Source: Obrimoposthia wandeli
Lineage: Eukaryota
Reading direction: 5' to 3'
Assembly (NCBI GenBank): GCA_977020255.1
Contig: CDROCS010001566.1
Coordinates: 62,001-126,000, forward strand
DNA length: 64,000 bases
Within the stretch, counting starts at the first letter, position 1, and each line of letters begins with the position of its first letter. A program made the translations under genes and the position numbers. Below are positions 760 to 42,633 of the stretch, one piece after another. The notes under the pieces were generated by a model. It was not told the origin of the DNA. It was given only the letters and a program-made list of their open reading frames with translations, and did not search any database.

Positions 760-812
760 ACTGCGACAGCTGCCGGTAACGCAGGGCAGTCTAACTCTTG
801 GAATGGGGTCGT
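760..812 (+). ncRNA. Candidate structured RNA / cis element, copy 1
   Basis: GC-rich 53-mer repeated at 5436-5489 with 5 substitutions and 1 indel, all compatible with one pairing model. Confidence 0.45.
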
Positions 813-1541: not shown

Positions 1542-1559
1542 TATTTTATCAAATTCGAA

Positions 1560-4915: not shown

Positions 4916-5146
4916 AGCAACCTCTTGAAAGTATTGATTAATATCCTTTTTCTTATTGTAATAAACAGTCATTGTATATATCTTTTTAAACGTTAGTATG
5001 TATATTTTTATTGATGTTTATTTTTTAATACACTGTATGTATCATAACCATGTCTTGACTTCTTACTAGCTACTCATTTCATTGGATAATTTCAACAAAT
5101 TATCAATATATATATACACCTTTCAATCAATTTCTCATTATTACAA

Positions 5147-10185: not shown

Positions 10186-10811
10186 GAACTATATTCAAGC
10201 TCAATTTAATTGTAAAAAATAAAGAGCATATATATATATATATTAATAGCTGTTTCTCTACTAAAATATATTTGAAAATTTTCAATATGTGTTAATGAAA
10301 TCTTACTGTTACTCTTTAATTTCATTACCTTAATACTAAGAGCACAAACATTCCAACCTACTAGAAACGCTGAATGCATAAATAAACACAAAAATACTAA
10401 ATAGCCATCAACATAATTAAATTCATTTTTAAAGTTAATAAATTACATGACATAGATCAGTTAATAGATTAACAGAAAAATTAAATTTCATTGTAAACCG
10501 AAATGAATTCAAAATACTAAATACTATTAAAATTTTATTCTGTATCTACGTCATGGCGATACACGTGTTTCTGCTTAATGTCTCAATGAAATTAATAGAA
10601 CACTTGTATGAAAAAAAGTTATAAGGTTACAACAGACAGTCTTTTACTAATAAAGAACTGGCAGAACCTTTTCTACAAAAGCGTATTACAATCACTGTGA
10701 ACTTGCTCCAATAAAAAAGTTTGACCGTAATGACTCACAATTCTTTCAGTATGATCATTTGTATCTAACACAGTATCAAATGAATTCTTATAAAGTTGTA
10801 CATATACTCTC

Positions 10812-13279: not shown

Positions 13280-13305
13280 GTTTGAACAATTCTTTAATAT
13301 TAATA

Positions 13306-19692: not shown

Positions 19693-20129
19693 TACCAAAT
19701 ATGTATTTTATTTAGGTTTGGGATTTTAGAGCTATTCTAAATCATTTTAATAAACGAGAATGGCTAATACGAGAAACTATTTGAATGTTCGCTTCAAGTC
19801 AAGACGTTCTTTTTTCAACTTCAAAGTGCATATTCCAAAAAATCACAAAACACAGTTTTAGTTCCTTCCTTCGTTTGTGGCCTTTGACTAAGGATATCAT
19901 GTAATAATTAAGTTATTGACTTTTAGTATTTTAATATAATTCATTTGTATTTCAGCCATTTCATATAGAATGTTCAGATTATAAAAGTTACTCTTAGAGA
20001 ATCAAAGTTTTACAGCTTAGGGATGGATATGTGATGATGTTTAGGTCTATTTCTTATGATGGTTAAGTAAATATAAATATTATTGAAAATAGATTGATGA
20101 CAATAAACCTGCACATACCTGATAATTAT

Positions 20130-20330
20130 GTCTTCAGAAAAATGTAAAGGAATCCAAAGAAAAATATAATTTGACTACAAGACAATGCTAGACCTGATAC
20201 AGTTTCAAAGTTGTCGATTTTTTCAGATCCAAACATATAATTCTTATCTTTTGGCCTGCATATTCTCGATTCATTTAGAACAATTGCGTAGAAAAAGTTA
20301 GATTATGCTTTACGAGACCACAGTAGATGG
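20130..20330 (+). pseudogene. Mariner transposase relic
   Basis: LQDNARPD motif at about 20178-20200. Confidence 0.4.
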
Positions 20331-20829
20331 TTTTATATTATTATACCCTGAATTCAAAAATGTAGCTCAGTAGTTTGTATCACATCGTCATTTTTAAAAA
20401 CTGTCAAAAAATATAAATAAACATACATGGATTGATAAGAATAGTTCATATGTCTTATTCTTTATTCAACTACAATCAAAACTAAAATCATAAAATTCGA
20501 CTTCAAAAATATACTGTACAATTATATCATCAAAACAACATCAACCTATTATTGGTCTATTCAAATTAATCGCTGATTAACAATACATTATCAATATACC
20601 CTTCACCATAATCAGATCTAATCATTAACCTAAATCAGACAAACCACCAAAGCTCTCATCTGAGCAACAACAAATAAACAGGCTCGGGACCCTATTGTAC
20701 CACTTCCAAACCACTTCCAAACACTTCATCTACCACGTTACCCACACAACGATATATTGAGCTTACTATCCTCTGAACACTTTAGCAACTCTGTTAAAAT
20801 CGTTTTAACCAAAACCTAATTTGATAATT

Positions 20830-23560: not shown

Positions 23561-23799
23561 AAGTATTACACGATGGTCACAAAGTTAACCACACAAAAAT
23601 CCATATAAGTTTACTACTATTCTCTCAAAACACCTCCAACTGTGTTTTTTTACAAAAATCTTGATGTGATAGCAAAACATTGAAATAGTTTTGAAATCAG
23701 CACTAAAATGCTTATAGAATATTATAATGAATTTTTGTAAATTCAAACCATGTATATTAAGGTAAATAGAGAACGTGTTGAAGATTTTTAAATATTTGA

Positions 23800-25154
23800 T
23801 ATATAGCGGGTCTGATTTATGTGGCAGAAGTGATCTAATCGTGACAAAATCAATTATAATCCTTTGAAAATAAAACGGCTATATGAGAATATTATTGGAT
23901 AATATTTAAAGATTCTTGTGAGTAAAAAGGATTTAATGCAAAATGAAATAAATAAAATATGATAAAAATATGTTTGTATCTTATTTGCGTTTTGAATTTT
24001 GAATTTTAATTCATATATGTTTTTTGAAAATCCACTTTTTCATGTTTATGCAATGATATTGTTGTGGCAACTAAAATATTATGAGCATAAATTGTTTTGT
24101 GTAGCATTTCAACAACAATAAAAAGTAAAACAATATGAATTAAGATTATACTCCAAAACGTTTTTAGACAATACTATTCTTAAGGGTTTTAAAGCTCTAC
24201 ACATTTTCCCCTGTGAACTATAATGGTAAAGGTTTGGAGTAGTGAGCGATCAGACAAATTTTAAGAAGGGATTTAAGCATTAATTAAAAGTAATATAAAT
24301 TACATACATTAGAACATATTTTGCCTATACTTATAGAAACATTCTGTGGGTTTTCAACCAAAATAATGAAATTTGTATGTTTTGATTTTAAATGATTTCG
24401 ACTGTTAGGAACATGGATAATTTTGAAGGTTATTTTAATAAAGTGATTAGATATATTTATAGTATTAAATCTTTTAGGTGAAAAATGATACTAGATGGAT
24501 GCATTTTTAAATGATTCTTCAGTTTTTCGGTCATAACTTTAGTTATCATAAATTTTTAAAAACATAATAATGCTGTTTGCTTTGTCTAACACTACGATCG
24601 CATGGTAAATTGTCCATAAAATTAAATATATATTATAAAAAGTAATTTATAAATATTTGGCTCCTTAGATCAAATATTTGGTGTATACTTTGTTCAGCAA
24701 TTTTTGACTGTAATAAAACTTTTATTACTGATATTTTCCTTTAAAAATTCCCTTATATGTGAAGCAACAATTTAGTTTGATGAACGTATGCCAGTTTTCT
24801 TTGATATAAGGCGATAGAAGGACAAAATAATATTTTAACATTAATGATTTAAAATGAGTACAGCAGTTTTACTGGTTTTGCTAATTTGTTATTTTACAAT
24901 TTTAAAATACGGTATTTCAATGATAAAATCTCAGAGAACTCTTCTAATATTATTTGACAAAACTACAATAGCATGGTTTGTTGTAACTCAATATTTTTTT
25001 AACGGATTTCTTTAGTAAATCCTAAAACTGTACTAATTTTGATTCATAAATAAAAATACATTAAATTATGTTTGATTCTAGTTATTTTTAAATTTACCCC
25101 TTTAATCCCGAGTGTCTCAAGGTTCACGAGTAAAAAGGTTTGGGAACCACTGGT
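23800..25154 (+). mobile_element. Highly degraded hAT transposon relic
   Basis: DTRW motif at about 24488; the end AAAAAGGTTTGGGAACCACTG resembles Charlie/hAT TIRs. Confidence 0.45.
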
Positions 25155-25438
25155 ATAGAGAATTTATCAGATATTGTTTTTACATAAAAATGAGTGCTTT
25201 AAACTTGAGACAAATGAAAGAAATTGTAATATAGATTATCCTATAACTGAGAAATAAATAAATATTAAAATTGATACACAACATATGAGAAGAAAATGTT
25301 TTTTAACGAGGAATAAAATCGATTTTAGAACATAATGCAAATGTGTAATAATGATTCAACATTTGAATTGTTATTAGATTTACCTTTCTAAAAAATGTTG
25401 GTTACAAAAAATTTGTAATATTTTTATACGGTCTTTAA

Positions 25439-25546
25439 TGTATCATACGCTTAGAAGAACACATCGAAGTTGTATTTCTCCCATGTAAAACATGTTCATT
25501 TAAATTGAAAACATGTCTAATATGTAAATGTTTAATTGGACCTTGA
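25439..25546 (+). pseudogene. IAP-type C3HC4 RING finger remnant
   Basis: CIIRLEEHIEVVFLPC-KTCSFKLKTCLICKCLI resembles CxICxxxxxxVVFLPCGHxxxCxxCAxxLxxCPICR with the GHxxxC part deleted. Confidence 0.5.
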
Positions 25547-26339
25547 GTTAGAAATATAAGATTTCATGATATAAACAACAAAATTCGTATCGGTTATAAG
25601 AAAAAGAATGCTGGTTATGAAATTAAGAATGGGACAAATAGAAAACTGTAATTTAAATCAAAACCCTGTTATAGCAATTGTTTGCAGTCAAGTATGTCGA
25701 GGCGTCAAATATGAACAAACAATCCAAGAATCGTCAATATCAACAAAATCTCTCTCTCTTCATCATGACATCAAGTTCAGTGTTTAATTTAATGTACTTG
25801 TATATAGTAATTAACCATATGTTAAAATATTTTTTTAACTTAATTTCTTTTAATTATGTATGGAATATGTTGAAAATCATAAAGATGAATTATACTTTCC
25901 GAAAGTAAAAGTTTAAAATCTAAATTAAAGTTTAAAGAAAATTAGGTCTAAAAAATAATAAAATGATAAAGAAAAAAATTTTCAATTGCAAAATGGAAAA
26001 TTTAACGGGTTCTTAATATACCTTAAAAGATAACTTAAATATAATCAGTCGTATGATCAACTAGTCTGCCTCCAAAATAGCAATTGTTCAGGAGGCACAA
26101 AACAATTTCTTGATTTACTTACTGTTTTTTCTTATGATATTATTTTATAACTTGCATATGCCTTCTACACAGTAGATATATTATATAGTTTAAAAAATAC
26201 AATAAGTCAATCGAATTTTTGTGTCTCCAGAACAATTGTCACTTTGGAGATTGGATATTTGATCACGGAACTGACAATATGTAACATTGAAATATTCAAG
26301 AAAACATGTGTTAGATTAGGAATTTTTTTTAAATCGAAG

Positions 26340-27200
26340 GTTAAAATAAGTAATTAAATGAAAATATGTTCAAAATAAATTGAGATTAATTAAAGAGAGA
26401 TCATAAAGTAATTAAATTGAAGTTGAATCATAAAGTAATTGATTTGAATTATTACATCATAAAATAATTGAATTGATTCTAAAGTATTGTCTTAAAATAA
26501 TTGAATTGAATTAAAATGTATTGTATCGTAAAGTAATTGTATCGAAGTTTTATATCATAGAGTAATTGAATCAAAGTTTTATATTATAAAGTAATTGAAT
26601 CGAAGTTTTATGTCATAAAGTAATTTAATTTAAGTATTACATCATAAAATAATTGGATTGAATTAAAAGGTATTGTATCATAAAATAATTGGAATGAATT
26701 TTAACGAATGTTACTGATTAAGGTTAGAGTGTCACCGTCTCTTGTTGTCTAGAATGAATTAATTGCGAGTTTATGTTATAGACTAAAAGTTAGTGCGTGT
26801 ACTTTAGTAGAAATAAAATAATTTCTAAATTAGTTCCCGAATAAAGTCTTAATAAATCCCAAACCGAACTAGGACAATTGAAAGTTTGAATCGAAAGAAC
26901 TAAACCATAGGTAAGCAGAGAGTTAACCCACGTGACGGTGTTCCAAACCCTGGTGTACTCTGAAGATTTATAAGCCCTGATAAATTCAGAGGAGTATCGC
27001 CAGCGTCGATTGGTTCCGAATTAGTTTTGCCTATTTCTGGTCTTGGTTTAGCCAGACCATTTTTAAATCTAAAATCTTCACCAGCCTAACCGGCTTAATA
27101 CATCAGCCCCACACAACATAACAATAGTTTTAGGAACCGTCCAGTTATCCTACACACAATCCCGATACACAACACAAAAACGTTAACAAAACCTTCAGAT
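26340..27200 (+). repeat. ~1.5 kb repeat family, partial copy E, with a ~30-bp degenerate minisatellite (26390-26700)
   Basis: 26975-27200 matches the reverse complement of about 59100-59340; repeated ATCATAAAGTAATTGAATTGAA-like units. Confidence 0.65.
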
Positions 27201-27535
27201 AAGTGAATATATCAATTCATTAAGAGATGTTGTTTGTATAAGAGACTATACGAAGTTTATTAATAAAGAGGATGAGTTGTTTTTAAACTTACAAAAGGAT
27301 TCATATGGTGCAATTAGTCAATGCTTAAGTCAAAAAAGACGATTTGAGTGTAAAAGAAAAAGAAATGAAGACATGATATATGAGTGCATATATGATACAA
27401 GCCTCGAATTGAAACCAAGAAAATAGCAGAGGCTTGTATATCAAGTACTCGAGAAAAGTTTAAAAAATACTTAATATTGATAATAATAAAGAAATTCTGT
27501 CAAAATCATCAATTGCATTAGGTATAAGCAAGTTA

Positions 27536-27840
27536 TTGTCAAATGCAAAATCAACACTGCATAATGATATAGAAAATTCTGATGGCCCATTATGTTTACA
27601 CTTTGATAGTAAACGACATTTTGATAAATGTATTTGTAAAATGGTAGAAAGATTAGTGATATGCGTTTCTGGAAAAATTACTCAAAATTATTGGCTGTTA
27701 GGACTCTTCATAATGGAAAAGGTAAAACCATATACGATTCGCTAAAGTCCGTAGTTGTTGAATTTAATTTAGCTGAAAAAATCGTGATGAAAATATGCGA
27801 TACTACATATGAAAACACTGGGATTCGCGGAGCTGTAACA
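27536..27840 (+). pseudogene. DDE DNA transposase fragment truncated by the Polinton (superfamily uncertain)
   Basis: LHFDSK...VERLVICVSG...KLLAV..L.NGKG...CDTTYENTG; the coding remnant stops where the AGTAGG terminus begins. Confidence 0.6.
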
Positions 27841-28020
27841 AGTAGGTGGATGTGTCCGGTCTAATCCACAACCTCACTGTCCTTTAAAACCGTGTATGTG
27901 TGTGAAGTGAAATTCCGTGTATGTGTGTAGGAAAAAAATTAAAATAAGCAACGAATAGGAGGGGGTACCACTGTCCTTTAAAACCGTGCATGTGTGTGGA
28001 GTGAAATTTCGTATATATGT
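27841..28020 (+). repeat. Left TIR with tandem duplication of the subterminal module (27875 and 27969)
   Basis: CACTGTCCTTTAAAACCGTG(T/C)ATGTGTGTG occurs twice, 94 bp apart; the inverse is at 42575-42633. Confidence 0.9.
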
Positions 28021-28303
28021 GTCTCCATTCCACTCCCTCTTCACCCACATTTTTAAAAATTTTACTTTGAAATTTACCACGAATCTTGAAAGTGGTTAGA
28101 GAAGACTACGGAAATCCATATTGGACACGGCGGCTTATCGCAGACGAGATTTTAAATAATATATTACTACTATTTTTAAGAAAAATTTTAGATTACTACA
28201 TGTTAAATATTTAGGTCAGATTTATAAGATAAAAATTAGATCACTATATAATTTAGAGGAGTAAAAACAAAATACGAGTCAAAATTATTTTTCAAAACAT
28301 TTA

Positions 28304-28738
28304 TTAAACATAAAACAACATATTGGCTTCACTCAAAGTCCAAAGAGGCTGCATTTTCTCATCATCAGCAAAATATCCATTGAGACGTATTGATATATTC
28401 CATAGTTCTTCATCTAGAATTGGAGCAATCAAATATCCTAGATCATCTTTAAAATCCAGACTGGGATCAGTTTCAAGCTGGAAACAATTTCCTTCATATA
28501 CATAATCAGGAATGTAAAATCCCAAAATATTTTTCAATTGATCAATATCAGATGTTGTTAAAATTTCGATGAAAGATTTATTCTCCACTTTTGATATTTT
28601 CCCAGGATTCATAACTCGTATAATTTGATGCCTCTTTAATATATTACATAGTTTTCCTTTTGAAATTCTTTCTGGATAATAAAAATTTCCTACACATCTC
28701 TTATCCATACTAAAATAAGGAAACTGATTAAAAAACAA
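28304..28738 (-). CDS. Hypothetical 144-aa protein, paralog A (possible OB-fold/SSB-like)
   Basis: Intact ORF (true start may be an internal ATG); its C-terminal half aligns with the neighbouring ORF at 28851-29333. Confidence 0.75.
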   Translation of the reverse strand: MFFNQFPYFSMDKRCVGNFYYPERISKGKLCNILKRHQIIRVMNPGKISKVENKSFIEILTTSDIDQLKNILGFYIPDYVYEGNCFQLETDPSLDFKDDLGYLIAPILDEELWNISIRLNGYFADDEKMQPLWTLSEANMLFYV

Positions 28739-28850
28739 CGTTTATAAAAAAATACATATAAGATACAAATATTTTAAAAATAAAACTGAATATTAAATGA
28801 AAGAAACATAGTAAAACCGATTACAATTTATTATATGCAAAAGAAAAAAG

Positions 28851-29333
28851 TTAAAACATAGAAATATGAGCACGTTCAATTTTCCACATAGGTAACTTTG
28901 TCCCCATTTCATCTGTCTTGTAACCATAAAGTCGAATTGTTACAGTCCAATGCTTCTTTTTCTAAAACGCATCAATATCAACATATCTTCCATAGTCATC
29001 TAGAAATGCTTCATCGGGTCCTCGGATATAAAATTCGTTCTTATTGAAAGTAAAATTTGGAACTGCCTTTTCAACTTTCTGTTTAAGATATTGAAAATCT
29101 GGTTTTTGAATATTTCATAGATAGTAGCTGAACTTTCTTCTTTCAATTGTCACAGGATTTACTAATGCAATCAGTTGAGCCTTCTTCAAGAATCTGACTT
29201 AGTATTTGAAATATTGTTTCACTTCTTCATACATATCCTTATCCGATTCTTCAAACATTTCTAAATCTTCGTCACCGCTTAATATCCGTTGGCTATCGTC
29301 CATCATTGATAATTGTCTTTGATATGAATGCAT
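28851..29333 (-). pseudogene. Hypothetical protein, paralog B of 28304-28738, with stops (missed by the ORF track)
   Basis: Manual translation: ...PDFQYLKQKVEKAVPNFTFNKNEFYIRGPDEAFLDDYGRYVDIDAF*KKKHWTVTIRLYGYKTDEMGTKLPMWKIERAHISMF*. Confidence 0.75.
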
Positions 29334-29394
29334 TTACTGTGATTTTTCCTTCAATGGCGCATTCTTTTATTCTAATTTCTAACAAAGACATGAA

Positions 29395-29555
29395 TCTCAT
29401 TGGTTAATATAACTAAAGCATTGAATTTGATTGGACTAAATCCATATTAAAAATCAAATTTGATTGGAAGAAATATATTATCCAATTATCATAGGTTTGC
29501 AAGATAATTACAAGAAACGTGCAATAAAAAAGCAGGTTCAGACATATATAAAGAA
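29395..29555. promoter_or_regulatory. Divergent promoter with four CCAAT boxes and a TATA box
   Basis: ATTGG at 29399, 29430 and 29463; CCAAT at 29482; TATATAAA at 29545-29552 upstream of ATG 29583. Confidence 0.65.
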
Positions 29556-29582
29556 GATTTTATAGAATACAATTTTAGTCTA

Positions 29583-30079
29583 ATGAAACTCGTAAATATA
29601 AATTATAAAGGTAGAACAGAAGATGATGTTTCGTACTTACCATTCAATGAATGGAAACCGAAACAATATGTGAAAAAGTTTGACAATTTCACAGTTGTTA
29701 TGTTTCCAACAGGTTAGTTTTTTAATTTTCATATTGAATTCTTTTAGGAAATTGTCGTGTTATGGTATGCAAAGTACCTATTATTGGGTTCAATTTACCA
29801 TTTGGAATTCGAATCACTGCAATACAATCAATACATATTTCGGCTAATCTTGGGAAACAGATAAATCTTTTTAAAACTGCAGAGAAAATGAAAAAAGAAT
29901 GTATGTTTGAACCAGAAATTTTTCCTGCTCTCAGTTATTTGAAGTTTAAACCGCTATGTGTAAATATATTTTCCAGTGGTAAAGTTATGATATTTGGATT
30001 GAAAATTTTTGATTATCCAGACATTGTTGATTTGATTTTAGAAAATATATCTTATTACATCTTGTTATCTTTTCTATAA
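29583..30079 (+). CDS. TATA-binding protein-like, 153 aa; join(29583..29712,29748..30079), 35-nt intron
   Basis: The C-terminal repeat FEPEIFPALSYLKFKPLCVNIFSSGKVMIFGLK matches TBP YEPELFPGLIY...LLIFVSGKVVLTGAK. Splicing AG|GTTAGT..TTTTAG|G restores the N-repeat TVVMFPTGNCRV. The spliced ORF has no lesions. Confidence 0.85.
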
Positions 30080-30098
30080 ACAAACAAGTTTAAACTTA

Positions 30099-30380
30099 TT
30101 GTTTCAAATGAATAATACTATAAATAGAGACAATGAAGTGGATAGTCTTGCGAACGAAATATTTTCTGGAAAAATTAAGGGTAAAGACATTTTATCAGAA
30201 TTAAAAAATAATGATATAACAAGAGATAACATTGAAATATTGGTTAGATCACACATTATTCGAGAATTTAGAAATCGTACACAAATAAATAAAATTATAG
30301 CCAAATATTCATTAATTAATTTTTGTATTTCATCTACAATAGCTCTAACATTGTACATTTCAATAAGGAAACTTCTATGA
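30099..30380 (+). CDS. Hypothetical 93-aa protein with a C-terminal hydrophobic segment (ATG probably 30108)
   Basis: Intact ORF between the TBP-like gene and the ATPase; YSLINFCISSTIALTLYISI is hydrophobic. Confidence 0.6.
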   Translation: MFQMNNTINRDNEVDSLANEIFSGKIKGKDILSELKNNDITRDNIEILVRSHIIREFRNRTQINKIIAKYSLINFCISSTIALTLYISIRKLL

Positions 30381-30417
30381 TAATATAAACAATATTTAAA
30401 ATGAAAGAGTATATGCA

Positions 30418-31067
30418 ATGGAGTTAAATATTAATGCTGTATTTCAAATAGTTGGTCTCAGTGGAAGTGGAAAGACACATTTCGTATGTAAATTGTTGCA
30501 AAATGAATCTCTTTTCAAATCTAGTTTCAAAAATAAATTTATTGGCATCATGGTGGAGGAGGGGAAAGTGGATTAACCAAAACAGAAGTTTGCAAGTTGA
30601 AGGGAATACAATTTATTGAAGGATTTGATGCAAATTGGTGTGAAAGATTGAAAAAAGAAGATGTAATAATAATTGATGATTTGTATGAGGAGGCTAACAA
30701 GGAATCGGACTTTAAAAATTTATTTACAAAGATTGCAAGACATCGTGAAGTAACAGTTATATTTATCACTCAAAATCTTTTTCATCAAGGAAGTCACCAT
30801 AGAACTAGAAATCTTAATGTACATTACTTAGTTTTATTTTAAAATCCTAGAGATCAAACAGTTGTTGATTTCGTGGCCAGACAGACGTTTCCTCAAAATA
30901 AGAACTTTCTAGTTGATTCATTCCACGATGCTGCTAAAAAAGCATATGGGTATATATTTATTGACTTTACACAAGCTTGCCCAGATGATTTACGTGTTTT
31001 AACCGACATATTTAGTTCTAAGGGATTAACTGTTTATAAACAAATAGAGAACAATCATAAAAGATAA
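30418..31067 (+). pseudogene. ATP: A32-like FtsK/HerA genome packaging ATPase (frameshift near 30540, TAA at 30840)
   Basis: Walker A GLSGSGKT, Walker B VIIIDD, ITQNLF, VLF*NPRD and YGYIFIDF. Confidence 0.95.
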
Positions 31068-31244
31068 ATTTACAATACCTTTTAAGAAGTTGAAAGTAAA
31101 GCGTAAAGCAAAGCCTAAAAAATCAAAAAAAGAATCATTAAGAAAAAAGAAGTGAAAAAATTAATCAAATCTGTAGTTAGAAATAAAAAAAAACTTAAAT
31201 GGCTTCAAATATAAACAATATTCAAATTGAACCTTTTTATTAAA

Positions 31245-31500
31245 ATGAAGAAAATACAAAAAAGCATACCCTATTTTAAAGCTTTAGTCAAAGCCTCTTC
31301 TCATAAGAGAATTATTATTCTTAAAGCATTTTCATCTTTTGTTGTAGATGATTTATTGGAAGTTTTGTATAATATTGTTTTGGATCGAGTAAAAGTTGGA
31401 AATCGGAAAAATATATTAAAGAAATATAGAAAAACTCTTCTAGATATTGCTAGATACGTTCATAAACAATTATTTCTAAAATCAGCTAAAGATATGGGTG
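31245..31500 (+). pseudogene. Basic Polinton core-like protein, C-terminus apparently lost
   Basis: KALVKASSHKRIIILK....VDDLLEVLYNIV....LKKYRKTL fits a recurrent Polinton ORF pattern; a Lys-rich remnant lies upstream at about 31070-31215. Confidence 0.55.
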
Positions 31501-31551
31501 CTAACCCTTCTTTACCTAAATTTAAATTTTCTTTCTATTCAAATTGTTGTA

Positions 31552-32575
31552 ATGTAGAAGATATGGTTCAATCCAAAAGATCCAATTGGCTACACGGGAG
31601 TTTCAAAATTAGCAAAAGAACAAAACAAAATTACAAGAAAACGCAGAAATGGCTGAGTGGTCAGTTAGCCTTCAGTCTGAACAAGCCGATGAAAAGAAGG
31701 TTTCCAACTAGAGCTTACAAAACCAACGGTCCTAATAATTTATGGCAAATGGATTTGATGGAGATGATCCCATATTCTTCCATTAATAAGGGATATCGAT
31801 ATATTTTAACATGTATTGATGTATTTAGCAGGTTTGCTCGTGTATTTCCAGTCAAAGCAAAGTCTTCAATAGCTATGCTTGAAGCCATTAAAGAAATATT
31901 AAAAGAGGACATTCCACAAAATGTACAAACTGATTTAGGAAAATAATTTTATAATTAGCAAGTTCAATCATTATTTAAGCAAAATAATATAAATCACTAC
32001 TCTGTGTTTTCACAGTACAAAGCAGCAGTAGTAGAAAGATTTAATCGTACTTTAAGAGATCGAATAAAAAAGTATTTCACGAAAGAAGGAAATAAAAAAT
32101 GGATCCAAGTTTTACCTAAAATAATACATGCATATAATCCCTCTGAACACATAGGTCTCAAGAGAATGAGACCTGTTGATGTTACTAATAAAAACTCTAT
32201 GGATATTTGGATGGACAAGAATAAAAAAGAAAATACTAAAAAACCTAAATATAAGAAAAACGAATATGTTCGAATTTCGAAAATTAGCTCTACTCCATTT
32301 ATTAAAAACTTTGATCAGAATTGGAGCGATGAAATATTTTATATAAGTAAAATTGATCAAAAGAGTAATCCAATAATGTATACTATTGAAGATGCTGACA
32401 ATAATATCTTTCACGGTAAATTTTACGAGAACTACAAGTAATATCTAATAAACCTAGCGTTTTCCGTATTCAAAAAATATTAAAATCTAAGGGTGCCAGT
32501 AAACATAAACAATACTTTGTTAAATGGCATGGTTATTCAGACCCAACTTAGATATCAGCATCTAAAATAATATGA
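31552..32575 (+). pseudogene. INT: Retroviral-type DDE integrase with C-terminal chromodomain (about 6 lesions)
   Basis: WFNPKDPIGYTG, WQMDL, IDVFSR, QTDLGK*F, VVERFNRTL, NWSDEIF and chromodomain YFVKWHGY. Confidence 0.95.
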
Positions 32576-33614
32576 AGTCTATGTATATGGTGTTACCTAG
32601 TAACGGATGCCTGAAGACTCAACCAGATAATGACGCTAGTAACTTTATTATCGATTGGGAAAATCCTATAAATCTCCAAGGATTCGGGAAGCGGCTTTAA
32701 CATATTTTTTTTATTATTCTCCAATTACTATTAGAAAAAACTCACATATTTCGTTTACAAAAGTAAATCAACTGAAGTTGTGATTGGTTTTGATAGTAAA
32801 GGACAATTCTATTACAATTGTATAGATAAAGAAGTGAAAGTAATACTAGAAAATAACAAAGTCAGATGTAAAAATCGATTAAAATATCTTCAAGTTATTA
32901 AAATTAACTTTGAATCTAAAAAAGAAGCTCTTCAATTCAGTTTTGATAGTGAATAAACAGTAGCTCGTAATAAACGGGATATAGTCTCATATAAATCGGT
33001 TAGAAATGTTCCTGGTAAAGTAGCAAAAGTGATGTTACTTGAAACGAGACCAAAGACTGTAGTGGAACTGAAAAAGTTTTCAAAAGATTATAAAATAGAT
33101 AGTGAAGTAGGATTTATGTAAATTAATACAGAACGAATGTAGTGAATATTTCGATAAATGTGAAACATTAAATGGTAAATTAATGTTTACAGTAAAGAGC
33201 AATATAAAACGAGTTTCATTTGATGATAAACTTGCTAAAAACCTTGGTTTAAACAGAAATACCTTTGAAACCCATACAATAAAAACCATAAAAGCTAAAA
33301 ATAAGGCAAAACTTTTAAATGCTGTTAATAATTTATATATTTATACTAATTTAATAGAACCAACGCTTGTAGGAGGACAGCGAGTTCCACTTTTGAGAAC
33401 AATATGGATATCTAAAAATGAAACTAGATATGGGGACGCTGTCGGTATGTGTATAGATCAACCAATGTATCTTCCAGTTTCTCTCTTTTCTTTAAACAAT
33501 ATTGAAGTAAATATTAGAGATGATTCCGGACAACTAATAGATTTCACGTACGGGGCCAACACAAGTTTAACAATACATTTAAGAAAACAAAATGACGAAT
33601 CTAGCATTAATTGA
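32572..33614 (+). pseudogene. PX: Minor capsid protein (penton, single jelly roll), frameshifted
   Basis: N-terminus YMVLPSN...PDNDASNF; C-terminus LYIYTNLIEPTLVGGQRVPLLR...PMYLPV...IEVNIRDDSGQLIDF...TIHLRK. Confidence 0.9.
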
Positions 33615-33960
33615 GGCTTATAGTCAAAGCCAACAAGGTGGAGAATTACCATATTTTGTTGGTAAACAATATGGATCTGGCTGGCTTAGAACATTAGTTA
33701 GATTTGCCTTTCCTCCTTTAAAGAGACTCGGGCGAATTATATCAAAATTAGGAAAGTATTACCTTTCATCCAAGGACAATAAACTAATACCAACTTTTAA
33801 GAAGCATACACTTGATAATGTTTTACCTGAAGTTGCTAATTTGATTAGAAAACATAAATCAAATAAAAGCCAAGAAAGTAGTGGATTTAAACGTAAAAAG
33901 AAGCAAAAAATCAATATAAACAAACATAAGAAAGTTCAAGGAACAATATTTGCAAAATGA
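33592..33960 (+). CDS. Conserved Polinton virion core-type protein (QxGG / GxG motifs, amphipathic helix, basic tail)
   Basis: YSQSQQGGELPYFVGKQYGSGWLRTLVRFAFPPLKRLG; sits directly before MCP with an ATGA overlap. Confidence 0.8.
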   Translation: MTNLALIEAYSQSQQGGELPYFVGKQYGSGWLRTLVRFAFPPLKRLGRIISKLGKYYLSSKDNKLIPTFKKHTLDNVLPEVANLIRKHKSNKSQESSGFKRKKKQKININKHKKVQGTIFAK

Positions 33961-35186
33961 GTTGCGCCAAAACCGAATTGTGTATTTTTGATAAACCACT
34001 TCCACAAGTAGTTGTAGATAATGCTTCCTTTGAAGAAATATTTCTAGTTAACTCAGTTTCAGGAACCACTTTAACCGATTTAGAATTTAATATTAATGGT
34101 TCCAATAGGGAATATTTAGATTTGAATGATACTTTGCTTTATGTTCAAATAAAAGTATTAAATCGGGATGGTACTAATTTAGAGGAAAATTCCGATGTAA
34201 CACCTGTAAATTATCTCTTTAATTCTTTATTTAGTGTTGCCATTGTTACTCTAAATAATGTCAAAATTGAAGGTGGAAATTATTCCTATGCTCATAAAGC
34301 TTTGATTGAACGTCTTTTGAATTATAGTACTGATACTCAAAATACTAATTTGGCAACCATTGGTTATGATAAAACAGTTGCAACTCGCAAAGAATGGATT
34401 GCGGGTTCTAAAGCTTACGAAATGTGTGGGTCTTTGAGATTAAATTTCTTTGAACAACCGAAATATTTAATTCCCGGTGTTAATGTACATCTTCGTTTGA
34501 AACGTAATAAATGGAATTTTTCTTTGATAAGCACAGACGTTCTAAAACCTAGACTTGATATTTTGGATGCAAAATTGTATATCCGAAGAGTTAAAACGGA
34601 GCAATCAGTTTTAATGGCATCTAATATAGGAATGGAAAAAAACAATGCTTGTTATCCTATTAGAGAAACTAAACTTATATCCTATTCTTTAGGTACGGGT
34701 ACACAAGCTTTTCATAAGAATCAAATATTTGGTGATGTAAGAATACCGAAATTCATTTTAATTTCTTTTCAAATAACTGCAAAATTTCTAGGAAATTATA
34801 CGACAGATGCAACTCAATTTGACAATCTTAATGTAGGTTCAGTGACACTTTCAAGAAATACTGATTATCGCGAAACATATAAAACAGATTTCGAAGGTAA
34901 CGCTTATGCTTTGGCTTATACGCAATCTTTTATTCGGAATTTGGGTCAACTAGATAAAAATATAAACAATGGTATTTCTTTCACTGACTTTAAAACTGGC
35001 TGCCCGTTCTTCACATTTGTTTTGGCACCAGACTTTGATATAAACCAATGCCAACTACCAAAGGATGGAAATTTACGACTAGAAATTAAGTTCAATGCAG
35101 CTTTAACACATCCTACTACGGTTCTTATTTACGGAGTGTTTGATTCGGAAATACAAATCAATAAAAACAGAACTGTCATATTATAG
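33957..35186 (+). CDS. PY: Major capsid protein (double jelly roll), 409 aa, open ORF
   Basis: CAKTELCIF..P.PQ, LEFNING...YLDLNDTLLYVQIK, ERLLNYS, QPKYLIPGV and LRLEIKF..AL......IY. Confidence 0.95.
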   Translation: MSCAKTELCIFDKPLPQVVVDNASFEEIFLVNSVSGTTLTDLEFNINGSNREYLDLNDTLLYVQIKVLNRDGTNLEENSDVTPVNYLFNSLFSVAIVTLNNVKIEGGNYSYAHKALIERLLNYSTDTQNTNLATIGYDKTVATRKEWIAGSKAYEMCGSLRLNFFEQPKYLIPGVNVHLRLKRNKWNFSLISTDVLKPRLDILDAKLYIRRVKTEQSVLMASNIGMEKNNACYPIRETKLISYSLGTGTQAFHKNQIFGDVRIPKFILISFQITAKFLGNYTTDATQFDNLNVGSVTLSRNTDYRETYKTDFEGNAYALAYTQSFIRNLGQLDKNINNGISFTDFKTGCPFFTFVLAPDFDINQCQLPKDGNLRLEIKFNAALTHPTTVLIYGVFDSEIQINKNRTVIL

Positions 35187-35187
35187 A

Positions 35188-35552
35188 ATGAAGTAAGACA
35201 TTTTTAAAATTTATATTTATTATTTTTTATTTAGTTCAGTACAAGTACAAGAATCAGCATAAAGGTCCTGGGTGATAAATTCAATGGAGTTTATCCAATT
35301 GATATGATCCCATTTTTTCAATCTGGAGGTTACATTATCAATACTCATACTTCGAATTTACCGGGAGAACATTGGATAGCTATTTATGTTAGAGAGTGGA
35401 CAATACATGTATTTGATCCACTTACAATGTATTATCCACATAAAATTGTTTCAACTATTCAAAAAGGATGAAGAAGAGTATTTTACAACAAGATACAATA
35501 TCAGGATCCTGCAACGAGAAACTGTGGAAATTTATGTATTTTATGGTTATCG
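35188..35552 (+). pseudogene. PRO: Adenain-like cysteine protease with a 42-nt intron (35193-35234), a 1-nt deletion and one TGA
   Basis: FNGVYPID, IINTHTSNLPGEHWIAI, VFDP and QYQDPATRNCG (His/Asp/Gln/Cys). ATGAA|GTAAGA..TTTAG|T gives MNSVQVQESA. Confidence 0.9.
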
Positions 35553-35829
35553 TTGCAAAACGATTAGTGTGTTATAAAAATAAATATTTTAAATGTTTTA
35601 TTTTGAATTATTTTTTTTAAATCCCTAAAAAATATAAGGTAAAATAATAAAAGACATAAGACGAATTTTTTTTAATACATTTATTAAACACAACATCACA
35701 ATGAGATCTGTCAGCAAAGATAAGGCCCAACCTAAAAATGTATTGAAATAACAAAAAGTTAGAGTCAATGTGCCATAGGGATCTAAAATTTTAAAAATTA
35801 AACTAAAAAAATCAAAAAATGAAAACCGT

Positions 35830-38800
35830 TTAAATTCGGAAGTGTCCATAAGCCAGGCTAGCGTTCTTTTCTACTTAAAAGCGCTTGTCGTCATTACTAC
35901 TCAAAGCGATTTTGGTTGATTTATGGGAATACAGTTGATGGGCTCTTGAAATAAATCTAGTTTGCTCAACGCTTTCAATACACCCAGTATCATAAACATT
36001 CCGGTAGGCCCCATGTGTAAGATTGTTTCTTCCCACACCCTTTGCTCTCATTGAACATGTATTATTAGATGCATGTAAACTGTAGCATTTAGGGCGTAGG
36101 AAAATACAATCCTCATACGAAACCTGTCCCTCGCTTTCATCTTTAAATTTCCCGATAATATATTTTAAACCCATAGAGTGTAGAGGATGGTTAGCGGGGT
36201 ATTTATGGGTATCTAGTAAGTTGTCCCTAAACATTGTTGGTAATAATTGATTATTTAAACTAACATTCCTACATTCTAAAAAGAAAGAGTCAGTGTCCCC
36301 AGCTGTGAATTTGATCTCACAATTGAATTCTTGTCGATATTTCTCTAATTCTATGTATTGAAGCTCGTACATTCTGAGTTTAGAAATGCCTAAAACCGTT
36401 TGACCTATATAACTCGGTCGATCGAGACAAATACTCTGTTTTCCTAATAACACTGCTACCAAGTCATTTGCAATTGTAAAACTACGATTGAAGTTGTACT
36501 TGCTAGTATATGTTATTAGTTTACGCTCATCATTGCAAAACCGTAGACAAATACGTTTCCGCAAGTCCTCTACTGTTTTTCCAAAGAGACTATTACTTTT
36601 TAATTTATAAATATCCCGATCGAATTTGCTAGTGGCCAAATTACGTTTTCTAGAATTCTTCTCAATATAGTCTTTAAACACAAAGTGTTGACTGAAGCTT
36701 ATAGCACGATGAATTCAAGTGACTTTCGCTTCCAACTTAAAGTAGAATTGAAGAAGCCGCCAATGCACTACATAATTCAGCTTATCTTCATGTGTTAACA
36801 ATAATTTCTTAACCTTTGAATTAGGTGGACATTGATGAACAGGCGCTACTGGAAGATCATTTAATTTATCATGCACATTGGGAGGGATTTTTAAGTCAAC
36901 CTCAACCAAATAGCCGACGTCAGCTGAAACTGTATCAACAGTAGCCAAATCTGTCATCAACTTATTCAACTCTTCCTCATCATAAACCCACTTAAAGTTG
37001 GCATGAGGTAGAGGTTGAGTAAGCGCCCACCCATACAAATTATTGATGTCGATGTACAGAATCTCCGTGGATTGATTTTTGACAACATGATGTTTGTTGA
37101 CAAAAGTCATTCCACCGCGTATACCATAATCATACATTTGATACATCGCGGGATCTTGCAGTAACTCGATATTAATTTCAAGAGTTTTATTGCCGTTGCC
37201 CATGAAAGACCAGGTAAACTAAAGATATGCATGGGATCTAGCCCATCTTCTGCTAAAGATTTTACACGAAAGGACTCAAAAACATCAGCTAAAAGATAAA
37301 TGTCTAACTTCATATAATAAAGCATATATTCTAAAAAATTTCGACAATTATTCGCCCAAAATGTACGGGCCTCATTATAGTCTTGAAGACTTACATCCTC
37401 AAATTCAGTTATGGATGAGATTTCAGTAGTATTTTCAAAATCTGCAAAGGTTTTCGCAAATTTATACGGAAAAATCCCCTTATCATTAACCGAAGCTGAG
37501 AACACTGACTGTGTGATTGACCATGCATTTAAAGATGCCGTTAAATTTTTTAAAGACCCACTCAAAACCTGCAGAGAATCTATGAATCTTAAACTGCAGA
37601 ATTCAGTATATGCAGTTACAGATAAATATTTCTCTGAAGTTTGAGGTATACATGAAATTTCCCAAGAGCTTAATGTACCAAACGCATATTTAAGTATATG
37701 ATGCAAATCATATCCTTTGAGGTTATGAAACACGATGGGAATGCGTGGTTTTTTAGGGAGACGACAGCCAAGGTCACAGAGGTTGCACGCCGCTCCCAAG
37801 TATCGCCCCGTAACATGATCGTAATCTCTGACTAACTTAGACTGGGTTCCACACAAATAACATAATCTACAAGAATTAAAATTAACCCAGTCTATGCCTG
37901 TCATGATCATTGCTTGATGAGCATTAAGATCATACCACTGTTTGACAATTGTTGTTCCTAATTCTTCTAATTTCAACATAAAATCTAAAATACAATTTTG
38001 ACCGGAAAATTTATGATACTGTATAATATTGGGGCCTAAGAATAGTAGTCCTGCCGAAGCCGGTAGGTGAATACTCTCATACTGGTCGTGCAATGCTAAA
38101 ATTGACTCAAAATCTGCATACACCCTGAATTCCACGGGTATGCATTTTGCCCAATCCCTGAATTTTAAATCCTTATCCTTAGGCATGCTGTATAGCGTAT
38201 TGTCATCAGGATTCAGTGAACATAATGTCAGATATTTGCTGTAAGAGAGCTCGGATCGGAATCCATGTAAACATCTATGACACCACTAACACTTTATCCT
38301 AACCGGTAAGGCTCCATTATATAAATTTAGAAGACGATCTAAATTGGGAATTGTAGCATAATGGAATTTTTTATTATGTTCGAGCAAAATTAAGTTGACC
38401 TGAGTCCCCTCATCTTTGCTCCTATAAATTACATCTACAAAAGGATTTTGAAAAATTTCTTCATCTGTTACATTAACTGGGATATCAGTATTATATTTAA
38501 ATACATTAATACTCAATTTATTAAGGTGTTCAATTCTTGATATCGCAGTTAATTTAACAGGAAAATCTATTCCAAGATACTGCAATTCATTTAAAAAAGG
38601 GGTATATTTACTGACACGCTCTCTATGCTCAGTAATTACATCCCTTTTGAGGATGGCCAACACGCTATACATAAAGCAAAGGTTATCACTGTTTTGTACG
38701 TTAACAATGGAACGTGAAAGTTGAAGAGATCTAGGCGAAGGAATGTATGAACTCCCCGAAAGATATATCATGTCAGTGAACTTTGTTAGAACAAAGGTAA

Positions 38801-39203
38801 CATCGTGAATTCTAACTAGAGTCCATCCACTATTTAAACCGCTATAATTAGCAATTTTTTCATCTAGGTTTCTTCCAATTTCAGTTACAAAATTATCATA
38901 GAAAACAGTTGCTTTATGTAAAATTACCCAAGTTTTAGTCTCCTCATTGACATTTTTAAACTGCACTGTTGCGCAAATTTGAACCTTAGCCTGTTCTAAT
39001 TTAGTCACTTCTGATTTTAAAAGATTTTCAATATTTGAATCTACACCTACGTTTAATAAACTTTTATTTCCTAATGGCACCTTAACTATAACATATTTAT
39101 TATTTAGGTGATACTCTATAGTAGCACCGTTTTCTCTACGTTTTTTTGGTGGAACTTTATTAAGAAATTGGCCTCGCCTCTTTTTACCTACATTCACTGA
39201 CAA
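35830..39203 (-). pseudogene. POLB: Protein-primed DNA polymerase B (TAG 38286, frameshift near 37190, TGA 36715, TAA 35875)
   Basis: VYADFES, RDYDHVTG, FHNLKGYD, FIDS, GIRGG, YIDINNLYG, KLKSNSLFGK, GDTDSFF, RPKCY and DDKR..AYGH; the four ORF-track pieces join through three in-frame stops and one frameshift. Confidence 0.97.
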
Positions 39204-39700
39204 ACCTCCCCCTAATTGAACGGGAAGACAACTAGTTATATTAATAGCAGCTGAGGTGGAAGGTGCTGCTAATGGTGATGCTGCTGATGTTGAGGCAATC
39301 GCAGCTGTAGTAGTATATGATGCTGTAGTAGATGCTACCGCAGATGATGAGACAGTAGATGCTGCATTTGAAGTAGGAGTAGCTGAGGTAGGAGTTGACC
39401 TTACCGATGAAGAAGCGGCTGTTGCAGAAATTGAGGCTGCTGAAATAAATATATTAAAAAATAAATATAATTTTAAAAATTATTACCTCCAGGCGTGCTA
39501 ACATCGATGTAGGCACTCGCGATGGTGGAGGCATAGCTGTCGTAGCAGATGACGGCTGTATCAAGGTACTTCCTGAAGAAAAAAAAATATAGATATAATA
39601 AAAAATAAAATATATATAATTACAATTTTAAAAAAATAAATAAAAAAAACCTAATGAAGGCAATCTAACTGTAGCTGGTTGGAAGTCCCAAAGAAAGTGT
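39204..39700 (-). other. Putative spliced Ser/Thr/Ala-rich N-terminal extension of pPolB (candidate introns 39440-39486 and 39573-39650)
   Basis: The frame is open upstream of 39203 (AASISATAASSS...QLGGGLS). Two AT-rich GT..AG blocks separate GC-richer segments. Frame continuity across exons is ambiguous. Confidence 0.5.
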
Positions 39701-40907
39701 TTGCTTATATACTAAAATTTATGCACACATGCTCTTTTCTTATTGGATGAAAAATTGATTTTATTCCTCCACTGAGAAGGATTGTTTATCTGTTATTGGT
39801 TGATAATATTATTTTTAATATTTTTTATTCCTCCAATTAAAAGGCTTATTTGTAATTGGATGAAAAATTTATTTTAAAAATAATGAATTTCTCCAATTAG
39901 AAGAATTGTTTATCTACATGTCAAATAATAATAAGATAGACTTAAACATTTTTTATATGCGCAATGGTCACCATGACTACGACATGGACAGCAAATATTT
40001 CGTGGAATTTCAAGGTACTTCTTGAAGAAAAAAAAATATAGATATAATAAAAAATAAAATATATATAATTACAATTTTAAAAAAATAAATAAAAAAAACC
40101 TAATGAAGGCAATCTAACTGTAGCTGGTTGGAAGTCCCAAAGAAAGTGTTTGCTTATATACTAAAATTTATGCACACATGCTCTTTTCTTATTGGATGAA
40201 AAATTGATTTTATTCCTCCACTGAGAAGGATTGTTTATCTGTTATTGGTTGATAATATTATTTTTAATATTTTTTATTCCTCCAATTAAAAGGCTTATTT
40301 GTAATTGGATGAAAAATTTATTTTAAAAATAATGAATTTCTCCAATTAGAAGAATTGTTTATCTACATGTCAAATAATAATAAGATAGACTTAAACATTT
40401 TTTATATGCGCAATGGTCACCATGACTACGACATGGACAGCAAATATTTCGTGGAATTTCAAGGTACTTCTTGAAGAAAAAAAAATATAGATATAATAAA
40501 AAATAAAATATATATAATTACAATTTTAAAAAAATAAATAAAAAAAACCTAATGAAGGCAATCTAACTGTAGCTGGTTGGAAGTCCCAAAGAAAGTGTTT
40601 GCTTATATACTAAAATTTATGCACACATGCTCTTTTCTTATTGGATGAAAAATTGATTTTATTCCTCCACTGAGAAGGATTGTTTATCTGTTATTGGTTG
40701 ATAATATTATTTTTAATATTTTTTATTCCTCCAATTAAAAGGCTTATTTGTAATTGGATGAAAAATTTATTTTAAAAATAATGAATTTCTCCAATTAGAA
40801 GAATTGTTTATCTACATGTCAAATAATAATAAGATAGACTTAAACATTTTTTATATGCGCAATGGTCACCATGACTACGATATGGACAGCAAATATTTCG
40901 TGGAATT
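39561..40907. repeat. Near-perfect tandem triplication of a 449-bp unit containing the pPolB promoter
   Basis: Units start at 39561, 40010 and 40459; I saw only two single-base differences. Confidence 0.95.
39700..39900. promoter_or_regulatory. CCAAT-rich divergent promoter (first of three copies)
   Basis: ATTGG at 39742, 39795 and 39855; CCAAT at 39833 and 39893; minus-strand TATATAA at about 39705-39711. Confidence 0.6.
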
Positions 40908-41640
40908 TTTAATAGATGATCACGAGAAATATTTAAAGTATTCAACCTCAATTTGGGAAAATATATTTTTAAAGTCTTATACTTTTTGCCATCCATTTCA
41001 TCTAAAACATAAAAAATTCCATTTTCAATATCAAAATTAGATTTTATTATATCGAAAATACATATTTCAAAAAAAGCCTTATGACCTTCTTTCCATTTTA
41101 ATAAATGGAAATAATTAGTTAGATATAAATTAGTAAATTTTTATTTATAATCTAAACTTCTAAATGGGATATTTATATTTATATGAAATGCAAAGGATGA
41201 AAAACGTCGCATACATCCATAATACATAATTCTTTTATAATATGATCACCATTTTTGTTAACGAAAGCCTCAAAATCTATGATGTATTCCTGCATAATTA
41301 CCCAAATTTGTATCCAATCCCTTTGTTTATAACGAATAAAAAAATCATTAATCAAAAATTTATTAAAATAACAAATCAGGATTCAGTCTTTCATGTTAAG
41401 ATTGGTATATATTGTCAATTATCCTATGAATATAAAATAAATTATATTAAACATACCTAAATATTTCGAAATTAAATTACATATTTTATCTTCAATGATT
41501 TCCGGACTATTATTTTCTGAAAAGTAATTTTTTTTATAATCTTCCTTTAAATCTGGAGATAATTTTATGTATAATTTATTCCAATTTTTATTATCCATTT
41601 TACAAAAAACATTATATAAATTTATTTATATTTAGACAAT
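40817..41640 (+). pseudogene. Degraded hypothetical Polinton accessory gene
   Basis: ATG TCA AAT start, open for about 75 codons, then stop-interrupted pieces including ORF 41242-41460; its 5' end is duplicated in the 449-bp repeats. Confidence 0.45.
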
Positions 41641-41713
41641 TATGTAACATAATAAATAAAGACAAAATAATATTCAAAAAATTAATTTTTTTGTGGAAGG
41701 ACCCTCTACCTGT

Positions 41714-41998
41714 TTAATCTGGAGGATTCTCTTTCTTGCTACTCGCCGAACATCCTCCACCTCTTCTTTTTTCATCCACCTTCCTTTTTTCCAATTCGAT
41801 CTTCTTGTTCCACTCCACGCACCGACGTCGTTCTGCTAGCCGCCTATCTTGTATCTCCACCCGGCGATTCCACTCGGTCGCGACAGCAGCATACAAATTT
41901 TGATTGAGGACCCTCTTTCTTAAGTCTCCTTTCTTCTCATTTATTCTGATGTTTGCTTCCATCTTCGTTACCAAACCTTGCAATTTAATGAATTCCAT
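41714..41998 (-). CDS. Hypothetical 94-aa charged, coiled-coil-like protein
   Basis: Intact ATG ORF, R/K/E-rich; TATA-like tract at about 42030 and CCAAT at 42168 upstream. Confidence 0.65.
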   Translation of the reverse strand: MEFIKLQGLVTKMEANIRINEKKGDLRKRVLNQNLYAAVATEWNRRVEIQDRRLAERRRCVEWNKKIELEKRKVDEKRRGGGCSASSKKENPPD

Positions 41999-42454
41999 TT
42001 TTAATTATGAAGAGGTTAATAAATTTGAACCTATATATATAAATTTAAGATATTTTTAATTCAATCACAGGCAATTAAACGATATATTTTTATTTATCAA
42101 ATTAGAGTTTAATAAATCATTGCATTTATATTTAATCCTAAAATAATTTAAATGATTCCTTATTAATCCAATCACAGTCGAATAAATTTACTATTTTTTT
42201 CTTCTTAATATTTTAATGTTAAATAAATATTAAGAAGAAAACACATGAAATTAATTTTTATAAATTATATTCTTAAAAATCTTTACAAAGTAAAAAAAAA
42301 ACTAGCCTTTTGAATGTATCTGGATATAAATTTCTCGCGTACAATTATTCACGCCCGCAGGTATTGTCATATACAATTTTTCGCGACCCTGTATATATAT
42401 GTATTGCTCGTCAAACCACCGCGGGCCCGGAGGGCACGCGTTGGCCCCTTAGAC

Positions 42455-42633
42455 GGCCTCTCAGGACCTTCTTCACGTTTTTGGGAGCACTATGAGATTT
42501 TCAATTTTAAAGGGTATTATATGGGGTTAATTAGTTTTTTTTGAGTGTTGGGGGGGGGGAAGGGGTAGAAAATTTATCTTTACACACATGCACGAAATTA
42601 AACTCCACACACGCACGGTTTAAAAGGACAGTG
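42455..42633 (-). repeat. Right TIR/subterminal region, terminal ~34 bp missing
   Basis: Reverse complement matches 27875-27930 and 50-215. Confidence 0.9.

Follow-up and report, generated by a model that had tools for sequence, protein, structure and literature searches.

The window analyzed here is a stretch of 64,000 nucleotides from Obrimoposthia wandeli (GenBank assembly GCA_977020255.1, contig CDROCS010001566.1, positions 62,001 to 126,000 of the forward strand). Its positions 27841-42633 hold one decayed copy of an abundant Polinton family, termed family A, in an AT-rich genome of 1.35 Gb. The element carries two classes of promoter-like boxes and a compact gene for a TATA-binding protein (TBP). 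Judged by its sequence, the element TBP likely reads the variant box YATAAAC and would thereby switch on the packaging and putative capsid genes after early genes driven by host TBP and NF-Y; a probability of roughly two in three is given to this reading.

Box classes and the genes they precede

The boxes and the TBP gene are located in the window as follows, with copy counts referring to related loci of the same genome (ORF, open reading frame; pPolB, protein-primed PolB; mCP and MCP, minor and major capsid protein).

29364-29371, minus strand: TATA box of the leftward gene L2, eroded in the window and canonical in 29 of the 30 family loci with a matched start
29399-29486, no strand: four CCAAT/ATTGG boxes at 29399, 29430, 29463 and 29482, the first three spaced by 31 and 33 nt, flanked by two divergent TATA boxes
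29545-29552, plus strand: canonical TATA box of the TBP gene, 38 nt upstream of the start, in 8 of 9 copies of family A; the distance is 35 nt in families B, C and D
29583-30079, plus strand: compact TBP-like gene, with exon 1 at 29583-29712, a predicted 35-nt intron at 29713-29747 and exon 2 at 29748-30079
30075-30082, plus strand: variant box TATAAACA, which includes the TBP stop codon, 33 nt before a small ORF at 30108
30384-30391, plus strand: variant box of the packaging ATPase, 34 nt before the start at 30418
31035-31042, plus strand: variant box of a short basic ORF, 40 nt upstream, in 6 of 6 copies
31210-31217, plus strand: variant box of the PZ-like gene, 35 nt before the start at 31245, in 11 of 11 copies; the gene has a weak Adeno_PX match (E 0.014)
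31461-31468, plus strand: variant box CATAAACA, 33 nt ahead of a Met-Gly ORF (31494); this ORF overlaps the start of the integrase, 91 nt downstream of the box
32504-32511, plus strand: variant box in the last part of the integrase gene, 68 nt ahead of the start of the putative mCP; it may reflect coding constraint
33915-33922, plus strand: variant box of the putative MCP, within the PW-like gene and 42 nt before the MCP start; found at 39-44 nt in all four families
39704-39897, minus strand: promoter-like region of pPolB, with TATATAAG at 39711-39704 and five CCAAT/ATTGG boxes, tandem and not divergent

Gene starts in the four families of this genome (A-D; 59 starts) were set by N-terminal patterns, the motif having already been noticed beforehand, and 1-11 copies were scored for each. 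The variant box YATAAACA occurred 30-50 nt upstream of 27 starts and a canonical TATA box alone upstream of 12, while 20 had neither; one of these 20 is L2, whose corrected start is canonical. The spacing between variant box and ATG was 31-47 nt with a median of 36, and the box was present in 207 of 213 copies, compared with 9 of 2100 other ATGs as background. Nearly half of the variant sites in four reference copies (27/55) precede a defined start, where the expected fraction is 0.011. ATAAACA was also the top de novo 7-mer upstream of starts. No initiator motif was found at a fixed distance behind the variant box in these four-family starts.

The canonical class comprised TBP in all four families, pPolB in A and D, R1, the L2-like gene and last ORF of C, and the IAP, phosphatase-like and orfX genes of D. 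Variant boxes preceded the ATPase, MCP and basic/PZ genes in 4/4 families, the small ORF after TBP and the exonuclease-like gene in three each, and others. An extended NF-Y-type box (consensus CCAATSR) occurred 45-160 nt upstream of 7/12 canonical and 0/27 variant genes (p 5e-5, overstated as orthologous genes are not independent). The IAP gene has a canonical TATA box in family D and a variant box in C; it is a BIR/IAP-like gene adjoining TBP in both families (L055, L057, L145, L167), its label and that of the phosphatase-like gene of D being drawn from motifs.

Relatives in metagenomes provided an independent test. The set consisted of 80 of 137 confirmed loci, 75 with a callable TBP ORF, which represent 44 TBP lineages (<70% identity); ORFs were called automatically. 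Upstream of non-TBP ORFs, ATAAACA was again the top word, at 80/316 versus 3.5 expected. YATAAAC preceded the ATPase in 24/27 loci (18/21 lineages) and the exonuclease-like gene in 9/16, while it preceded pPolB in 0/6 and TBP in 0/72, with a null of 109/11348 (1%). The box was strand-specific, with 0/316 in reversed orientation, its position peaked at 30-49 nt (61+27 boxes), and 68 of 96 boxes lay outside called ORFs. The forkhead-type words GTAAACA, ATAAATA and GTAAATA were not enriched in these loci, and TATAAAA/T/G did not reach a comparable share. The extended NF-Y-type box was found at 17/43 canonical and 2/97 variant genes (p 1.5e-8). Box and altered TBP residues recur across the 44 lineages, on contigs of 27-47% GC.

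Two contigs bear on the pairing of box and protein. L249, a Polinton-like contig, carries a full-length TBP from the cellular-type clade, possibly an independent capture, and has no YATAAAC before any listed gene. L262 was found by its MCP and holds the family TBP and the boxes together. L262 and L263 are Polinton contigs with the box that lie inside bacterial metagenome-assembled genomes, probably through binning contamination.

The compact TBP-like protein

The TBP-like gene is a real, divergent member of the TBP fold family. It matches Pfam PF00352 (E 8.4e-11) with 42 bits for exon 2 of the window and 63.8 bits for family B, at a cut-off of 22.9. A GT-AG insert at 29713-29747 splits the gene; full-length outside homologues have no such insert and match both exons across it. 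Families C and D have an insert at the identical codon position; B has none. In family A, 17 of 37 loci matched strict start and splice patterns, and both exons were open in 16 of those 17. Four runs over 29300-30500 covered promoter and genes alike; the joint across the insert was not among the 15 listed of 231, which is evidence neither way.

A homologue search over 1.84 billion representatives returned 136 proteins at E <=1e-10, and the C-terminal strand motif of the family was present in 110/158 aligned rows. The proteins are 144-154 aa long and carry no extra domain. The predicted structure of the intronless family B protein (pLDDT 92.6) aligned to human TBP with Z 12.7 and an rmsd of 2.6 Å over 144/144 residues. 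The model has a complete sheet and a two-repeat saddle, with helices in the second repeat only and both first-repeat helices missing.

Residues are given in yeast numbering; E186/E188 are TFIIB contacts and the phenylalanines intercalating residues. Among 47 compact rows, E186 was kept in 47, E188 in 45, F116 in 42 and F190 in 47. On the DNA-facing side the changes V71N (38), V122R (42), T124M (45), N159S (45) and I194R (44) predominated; L205N in every compact row and the kept F207 were fixed by the row filter and are no independent observation. The four phenylalanines and the central asparagine pair are incomplete, with F207 and N69 retained, F99 absent and N159 replaced as listed.

The four families, whose TBPs are about 50% identical, share a conserved 31-codon block of the gene (pN 0.13-0.19 vs pS 0.69-1.10). 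In a quick tree a long branch (SH-aLRT 99) set the family apart from cellular-type TBPs, a host TRF included; the compact, long and cellular labels of that tree are imperfect (9 family-like rows were labelled cellular), and just the split from cellular-type TBP was used. The element TBP is therefore not a recent copy of a host gene. In the host genome, two TBP genes lie head to head on one contig, and divergent TRF-like genes occur as well (L031-L039). The host TBP genes, like the short GT-AG inserts, indicate an animal.

Layout, families and decay of the element

The remaining features of the element are given below, those with copy-based boundaries being drawn from sister copies.

27841-28060, no strand: left terminal repeat, starting AGTAGG; sister copies align from 27840, right boundary approximate
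28304-28708, minus strand: L1, 134 aa, distantly paralogous to L2, no Pfam match; 38 nt upstream, at 28746-28740, lies a YATAAAC core, with the full box in 9 of 10 copies
28853-29333, minus strand: L2, broken in the window and 160 aa long in several sister copies, 3' end approximate; possibly ssDNA-binding-like, a weak lead
30418-31067, plus strand: packaging ATPase (Pox_A32), broken in the window
31552-32575, plus strand: integrase (INT), broken in the window (rve E 1.9e-7)
32572-33614, plus strand: putative mCP, broken, named from position, no Pfam match
33592-33960, plus strand: PW-like gene, holding the MCP variant box
33957-35186, plus strand: putative MCP, 409 aa, named from size and position, no Pfam match
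35188-35567, plus strand: putative maturation protease (PRO), with a predicted 42-nt intron at 35193-35234; same start layout in B, C and D
35577-35700, no strand: convergence gap, AATAAA on both strands
35700-39689, minus strand: pPolB (PF03175), broken, 5' exons missing at 39689, 3' end approximate
39561-40908, no strand: 449-bp triplication spanning the promoter of pPolB and the tail of the exonuclease-like gene, from repeat analysis and sister copies
40808-41295, minus strand: exonuclease-like ORF, no Pfam match; variant box at 41331-41324, 36 nt upstream
41714-41998, minus strand: R1, coiled-coil-like ORF; canonical TATA near 42034-42041
42314-42633, no strand: remnant of the right terminal repeat, truncated, from sister copies

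Polinton hallmarks were recovered by Pfam for pPolB (PF03175, E 4e-12) and for the integrase (rve, E 1.9e-7, a fragment just under the cut-off). Pox_A32 scored above its cut-off in the A32-like packaging ATPase of family B and weakly in the window pieces, which are 65-75% identical to family B. The putative MCP, mCP and protease gave no Pfam match in the window and are named, like PZ and PW, from size, order and motifs; the exonuclease-like label is based on a DFE motif. The small ORFs gave no Pfam match either, and no search aimed at further pre-initiation-complex partners was made. The Met-Gly ORF (window 31494 onward; L082:4660-4875) is 72-85 aa long with Met-Gly at its start or early and a Cys-Cys motif; in families A-D it runs over the start of the integrase in a different frame, and its product may possibly be a myristoylated virion protein.

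Families A, C and D each gave at least 150 genome matches at an identity of at least 91%, and TBP-like queries gave 20,000-32,000 first-look candidates. Gene orders differ among families A-D, while TBP lies upstream of ATPase-PZ-INT-mCP-PW-MCP-PRO in all four. The left end of the element is present in the window and the right end truncated. Compared with ten sister copies, the window copy is without about 110 bp at 31452 and about 570-670 bp at 39689, the first pPolB exons included. Its 449-bp triplication was not found in the six sister copies spanning the region. In the sister copies L113, L121 and L127 (of 39300-39990), pPolB starts with a three-codon exon and short predicted introns, followed by a Cys/His module and acidic Trp repeats, a part gone from the window copy. 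Elsewhere in the window, 1-5000 is the decayed end of a second Polinton with plus-strand pPolB pieces, apparently of family C, whose terminal-repeat-like start is related to the element at 27841. At 10811-13280 an element is flanked by inverted repeats beginning CAGTAGGTAG and has many internal inverted repeats, possibly a non-autonomous Polinton derivative. C549 is a fragment of a fifth family and stands outside all counts.

The original prediction, made from the letters of the window, had described a possible self-regulating transcription module in which gene blocks radiate from two divergent CCAAT-dense regions. The feature is real and was partly misdescribed, and its core claim is stronger than stated. 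The region at 29333-29583 is divergent since a TATA box lies on each strand around four CCAAT/ATTGG boxes, with L2 starting leftward at 29333. The region at 39700-39900 is not, because the gene to its right, the exonuclease-like gene (41295 to 40808), also has minus-strand orientation and terminates at the cluster. The TATA box of this region points to pPolB, and with the five CCAAT/ATTGG boxes at 39742-39897 it makes up a tandem promoter-like region. A further TATA/CCAAT set had been placed near 42030-42170, where the TATA box serves a minus-strand gene and a single CCAAT lies in 42042-42200.

The plus-strand block was recovered as described, running from TBP through the small ORF, ATPase, PZ-like, INT, putative mCP, PW-like and putative MCP genes to putative PRO and converging on minus-strand pPolB. 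The gap at 35577-35700 holds two AATAAA and two TTTATT, both common words (176 and 162 in the window). The close packing of genes also held, with ATGA overlaps at INT/mCP (32572) and PW/MCP (33957), a 23-nt overlap at mCP/PW and a 1-nt gap at MCP/PRO. Dependence of the whole block, as one unit, on the promoter at 29400 appears unlikely, as an internal box precedes most of its genes.

Motif enrichment across related copies, proposed as a check, separated the two kinds of signal: the internal boxes are common to four families, whereas CCAAT clusters are a trait of family A, families B and D lacking them before TBP. Each plain CCAAT cluster by itself was borderline (P 0.072 for the first, 0.056 for the second) when compared with 500 order-1 Markov samples of the element. 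CCAAT occurred 0.46 times per 220 nt in metagenome loci versus 0.51 in background, without enrichment. Plain CCAAT density, being borderline and family-specific, was rejected as proof of NF-Y use, and the extended NF-Y-type box was tested instead. With that test, the proposal of NF-Y-driven early genes and an element TBP serving the capsid block gained support, in that the extended box sits on canonical-TATA genes and is avoided by variant-box genes, while the morphogenesis block has its own conserved TATA variant. Self-regulation in the sense of autoregulation is not supported, because no variant box stands at promoter distance of TBP in any of the four families or of the metagenome TBP starts.

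Proposed switch, alternatives and known systems

The gene, its predicted fold, the two box classes and their spacing, orientation and gene assignment are directly supported; binding, recruitment and timing are steps that we infer. Host TFIID and NF-Y would transcribe the canonical-TATA genes, namely TBP, pPolB and accessory genes. The element TBP of 144-154 aa would then bind YATAAAC via its altered concave face and, by way of the retained EPE stirrup, recruit host TFIIB and Pol II; partners docking on the absent helix would probably play no part. TBP and TFIIB are a textbook DNA-dependent pair. Each variant-box gene would give its own short-leader transcript, the box often being buried in the end of the preceding gene. 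Genes without a close box (INT, PRO, often PW) may ride on an upstream transcript or use a longer leader; most PW starts have no close box, and several boxless INT, mCP, PRO and PW starts have one 56-101 nt upstream. Such a circuit would be a feed-forward cascade and not a positive loop. The label "late" for variant-box genes is a guess.

Several results weigh against this switch. Twenty of the 59 starts lack both boxes at 30-55 nt, including INT in 4/4, mCP in 4/4 and PRO in 3/4 families, and in metagenomes the box preceded MCP in 4/10, mCP in 3/8, PRO in 1/7 and INT in 0/9 cases. The variant class includes non-structural genes (exonuclease-like, L1 and the IAP of family C), and 5/12 canonical genes have no NF-Y-type box, TBP of B and D among them. 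With one of four intercalating phenylalanines (F99) and one central asparagine lost, the protein may bind DNA weakly. At least five TBP-family loci, divergent TRFs among them, belong to the host itself. Co-variation of box and TBP was seen in L249 alone (n=1), the ATPase of L262 is without an intact box, and the non-independence of orthologues noted above also counts here. A TBP-less Polinton control was not found in IMG/VR scans with TBP, MCP and ATPase or in a prokaryote-genome scan, which gave 2 contigs; a search of the own genome with distant ATPase and MCP gave matches of just 30-37% identity, whose sequences were not examined.

Given those host loci, the reader of YATAAAC could instead be a TBP/TRF paralogue or a forkhead protein of the host, the element TBP having another role such as soaking up TFIIB or damping host transcription. 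ATAAACA fits the forkhead consensus, conservation is higher at the TFIIB-contact glutamates than at the DNA-facing residues, and the title of PDB 1QN3 has cellular TBP on a C(-25) TATA variant. This explanation is nevertheless unlikely. The same box and the same altered residues are found again across 44 TBP lineages on contigs of 27-47% GC, a mere decoy would not require a conserved new set of DNA-facing residues, and L249, with the other TBP type, has no box. The forkhead version is disfavoured by the lack of enrichment of the other forkhead words and by the strict orientation of the box.

Position at gene ends raises a different possibility, that the box is an RNA-level signal between genes, serving to form 3' ends, to process a long transcript or to restart translation. 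It often lies where the preceding gene ends, sometimes taking in the TAA stop codon of that gene (30075); the genes also follow one another closely, and AATAAA words clearly cluster where the block ends. We consider such a signal improbable, given the fixed distance to the downstream ATG, the box before a leftward ORF beside the divergent region in family D, the lack of boxes where PRO and pPolB, the terminal genes, end in family A, and its single-base difference from TATAAAA in a TBP-encoding element. The layout of the original prediction, in which long divergent units start from a small number of CCAAT/TATA promoters, undergo processing or coupled translation and are merely supported by TBP, is the least probable of the three. 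The ATGA overlaps and the boxless INT, mCP and PRO do suggest some coupled translation, and the left region is truly divergent; the second region, however, is tandem, and gene order and CCAAT clusters vary among families while the internal boxes stay.

Taken together with the element TBP, canonical and variant boxes would be a minimal early-to-late switch. The wider claim is finely balanced: that a widespread Polinton lineage has a one-protein late switch, in which an altered-specificity TBP of ~150 residues without the first-repeat docking helix would bring host TFIIB and Pol II to private YATAAAC promoters in upstream gene tails. The system bears on the timing of virion gene expression in Polintons and on whether those of animals can form particles unaided. 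An element-encoded TBP paired with its box could serve as a marker for activated elements in RNA data. If true, the switch would be a convergent viral promoter-switching device far smaller than the herpesvirus late switch, a natural orthogonal TBP-box pair whose TBP has shifted specificity, and a sign of an autonomous nuclear virus cycle without a helper virus.

With cellular TBP and TRF (PF00352) the element TBP shares the saddle fold, F116/F190/F207, N69 and E186/E188; it differs from them in its compact form without both first-repeat helices, in the missing F99 and in its remodelled DNA face. Giant viruses (Nucleocytoviricota) also have TBP homologues, as seen in BFVD matches. Most of them supply an RNA polymerase of their own, which the window element does not encode.

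The element resembles Polintons/Mavericks and adintoviruses in its pPolB, integrase, ATPase, PZ/PW-like, putative capsid and protease genes and its terminal repeats (PMC8097293, PMC8502044). For vertebrate Polintons eight intron-free ORFs are described, whereas this lineage adds TBP and short predicted introns. Some polintoviruses carry the late factor VLTF3 (PMC11131425), while the factor here is a TBP. The sole mention found of a TBP-like gene is a label in the legend of a MELD-virus map (PMC8502044 and its preprint). Term look-ups for TBP or TATA in recent Polinton papers were without match, and no promoter analysis of a Polinton TBP-plus-box system was found in the literature, figures, supplements, subscription journals and Repbase reports lying outside the search.

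The closest parallel is late transcription in beta- and gammaherpesviruses, where a viral TBP (vTBP; KSHV ORF24, EBV BcRF1) acts with a TATT box (PMC7498053). Both systems have a virus-encoded TBP-like protein, a one-base TATA variant before structural genes and canonical TATA at early genes, here as a sequence pattern, with host Pol II presumed. The fold likeness of the element TBP to BcRF1 is weak (E 2e-3). In ORF24 an N-terminal domain binds Pol II, and five further viral proteins are required (PMC7498053), while the element TBP consists of the TBP core only; the herpesvirus box is TATT plus RVNYS rather than YATAAAC, and the TFIIB stirrup is kept in the element TBP. By analogy, the element system is taken to work like the herpesvirus vTBP/TATT system and is not a member of it.

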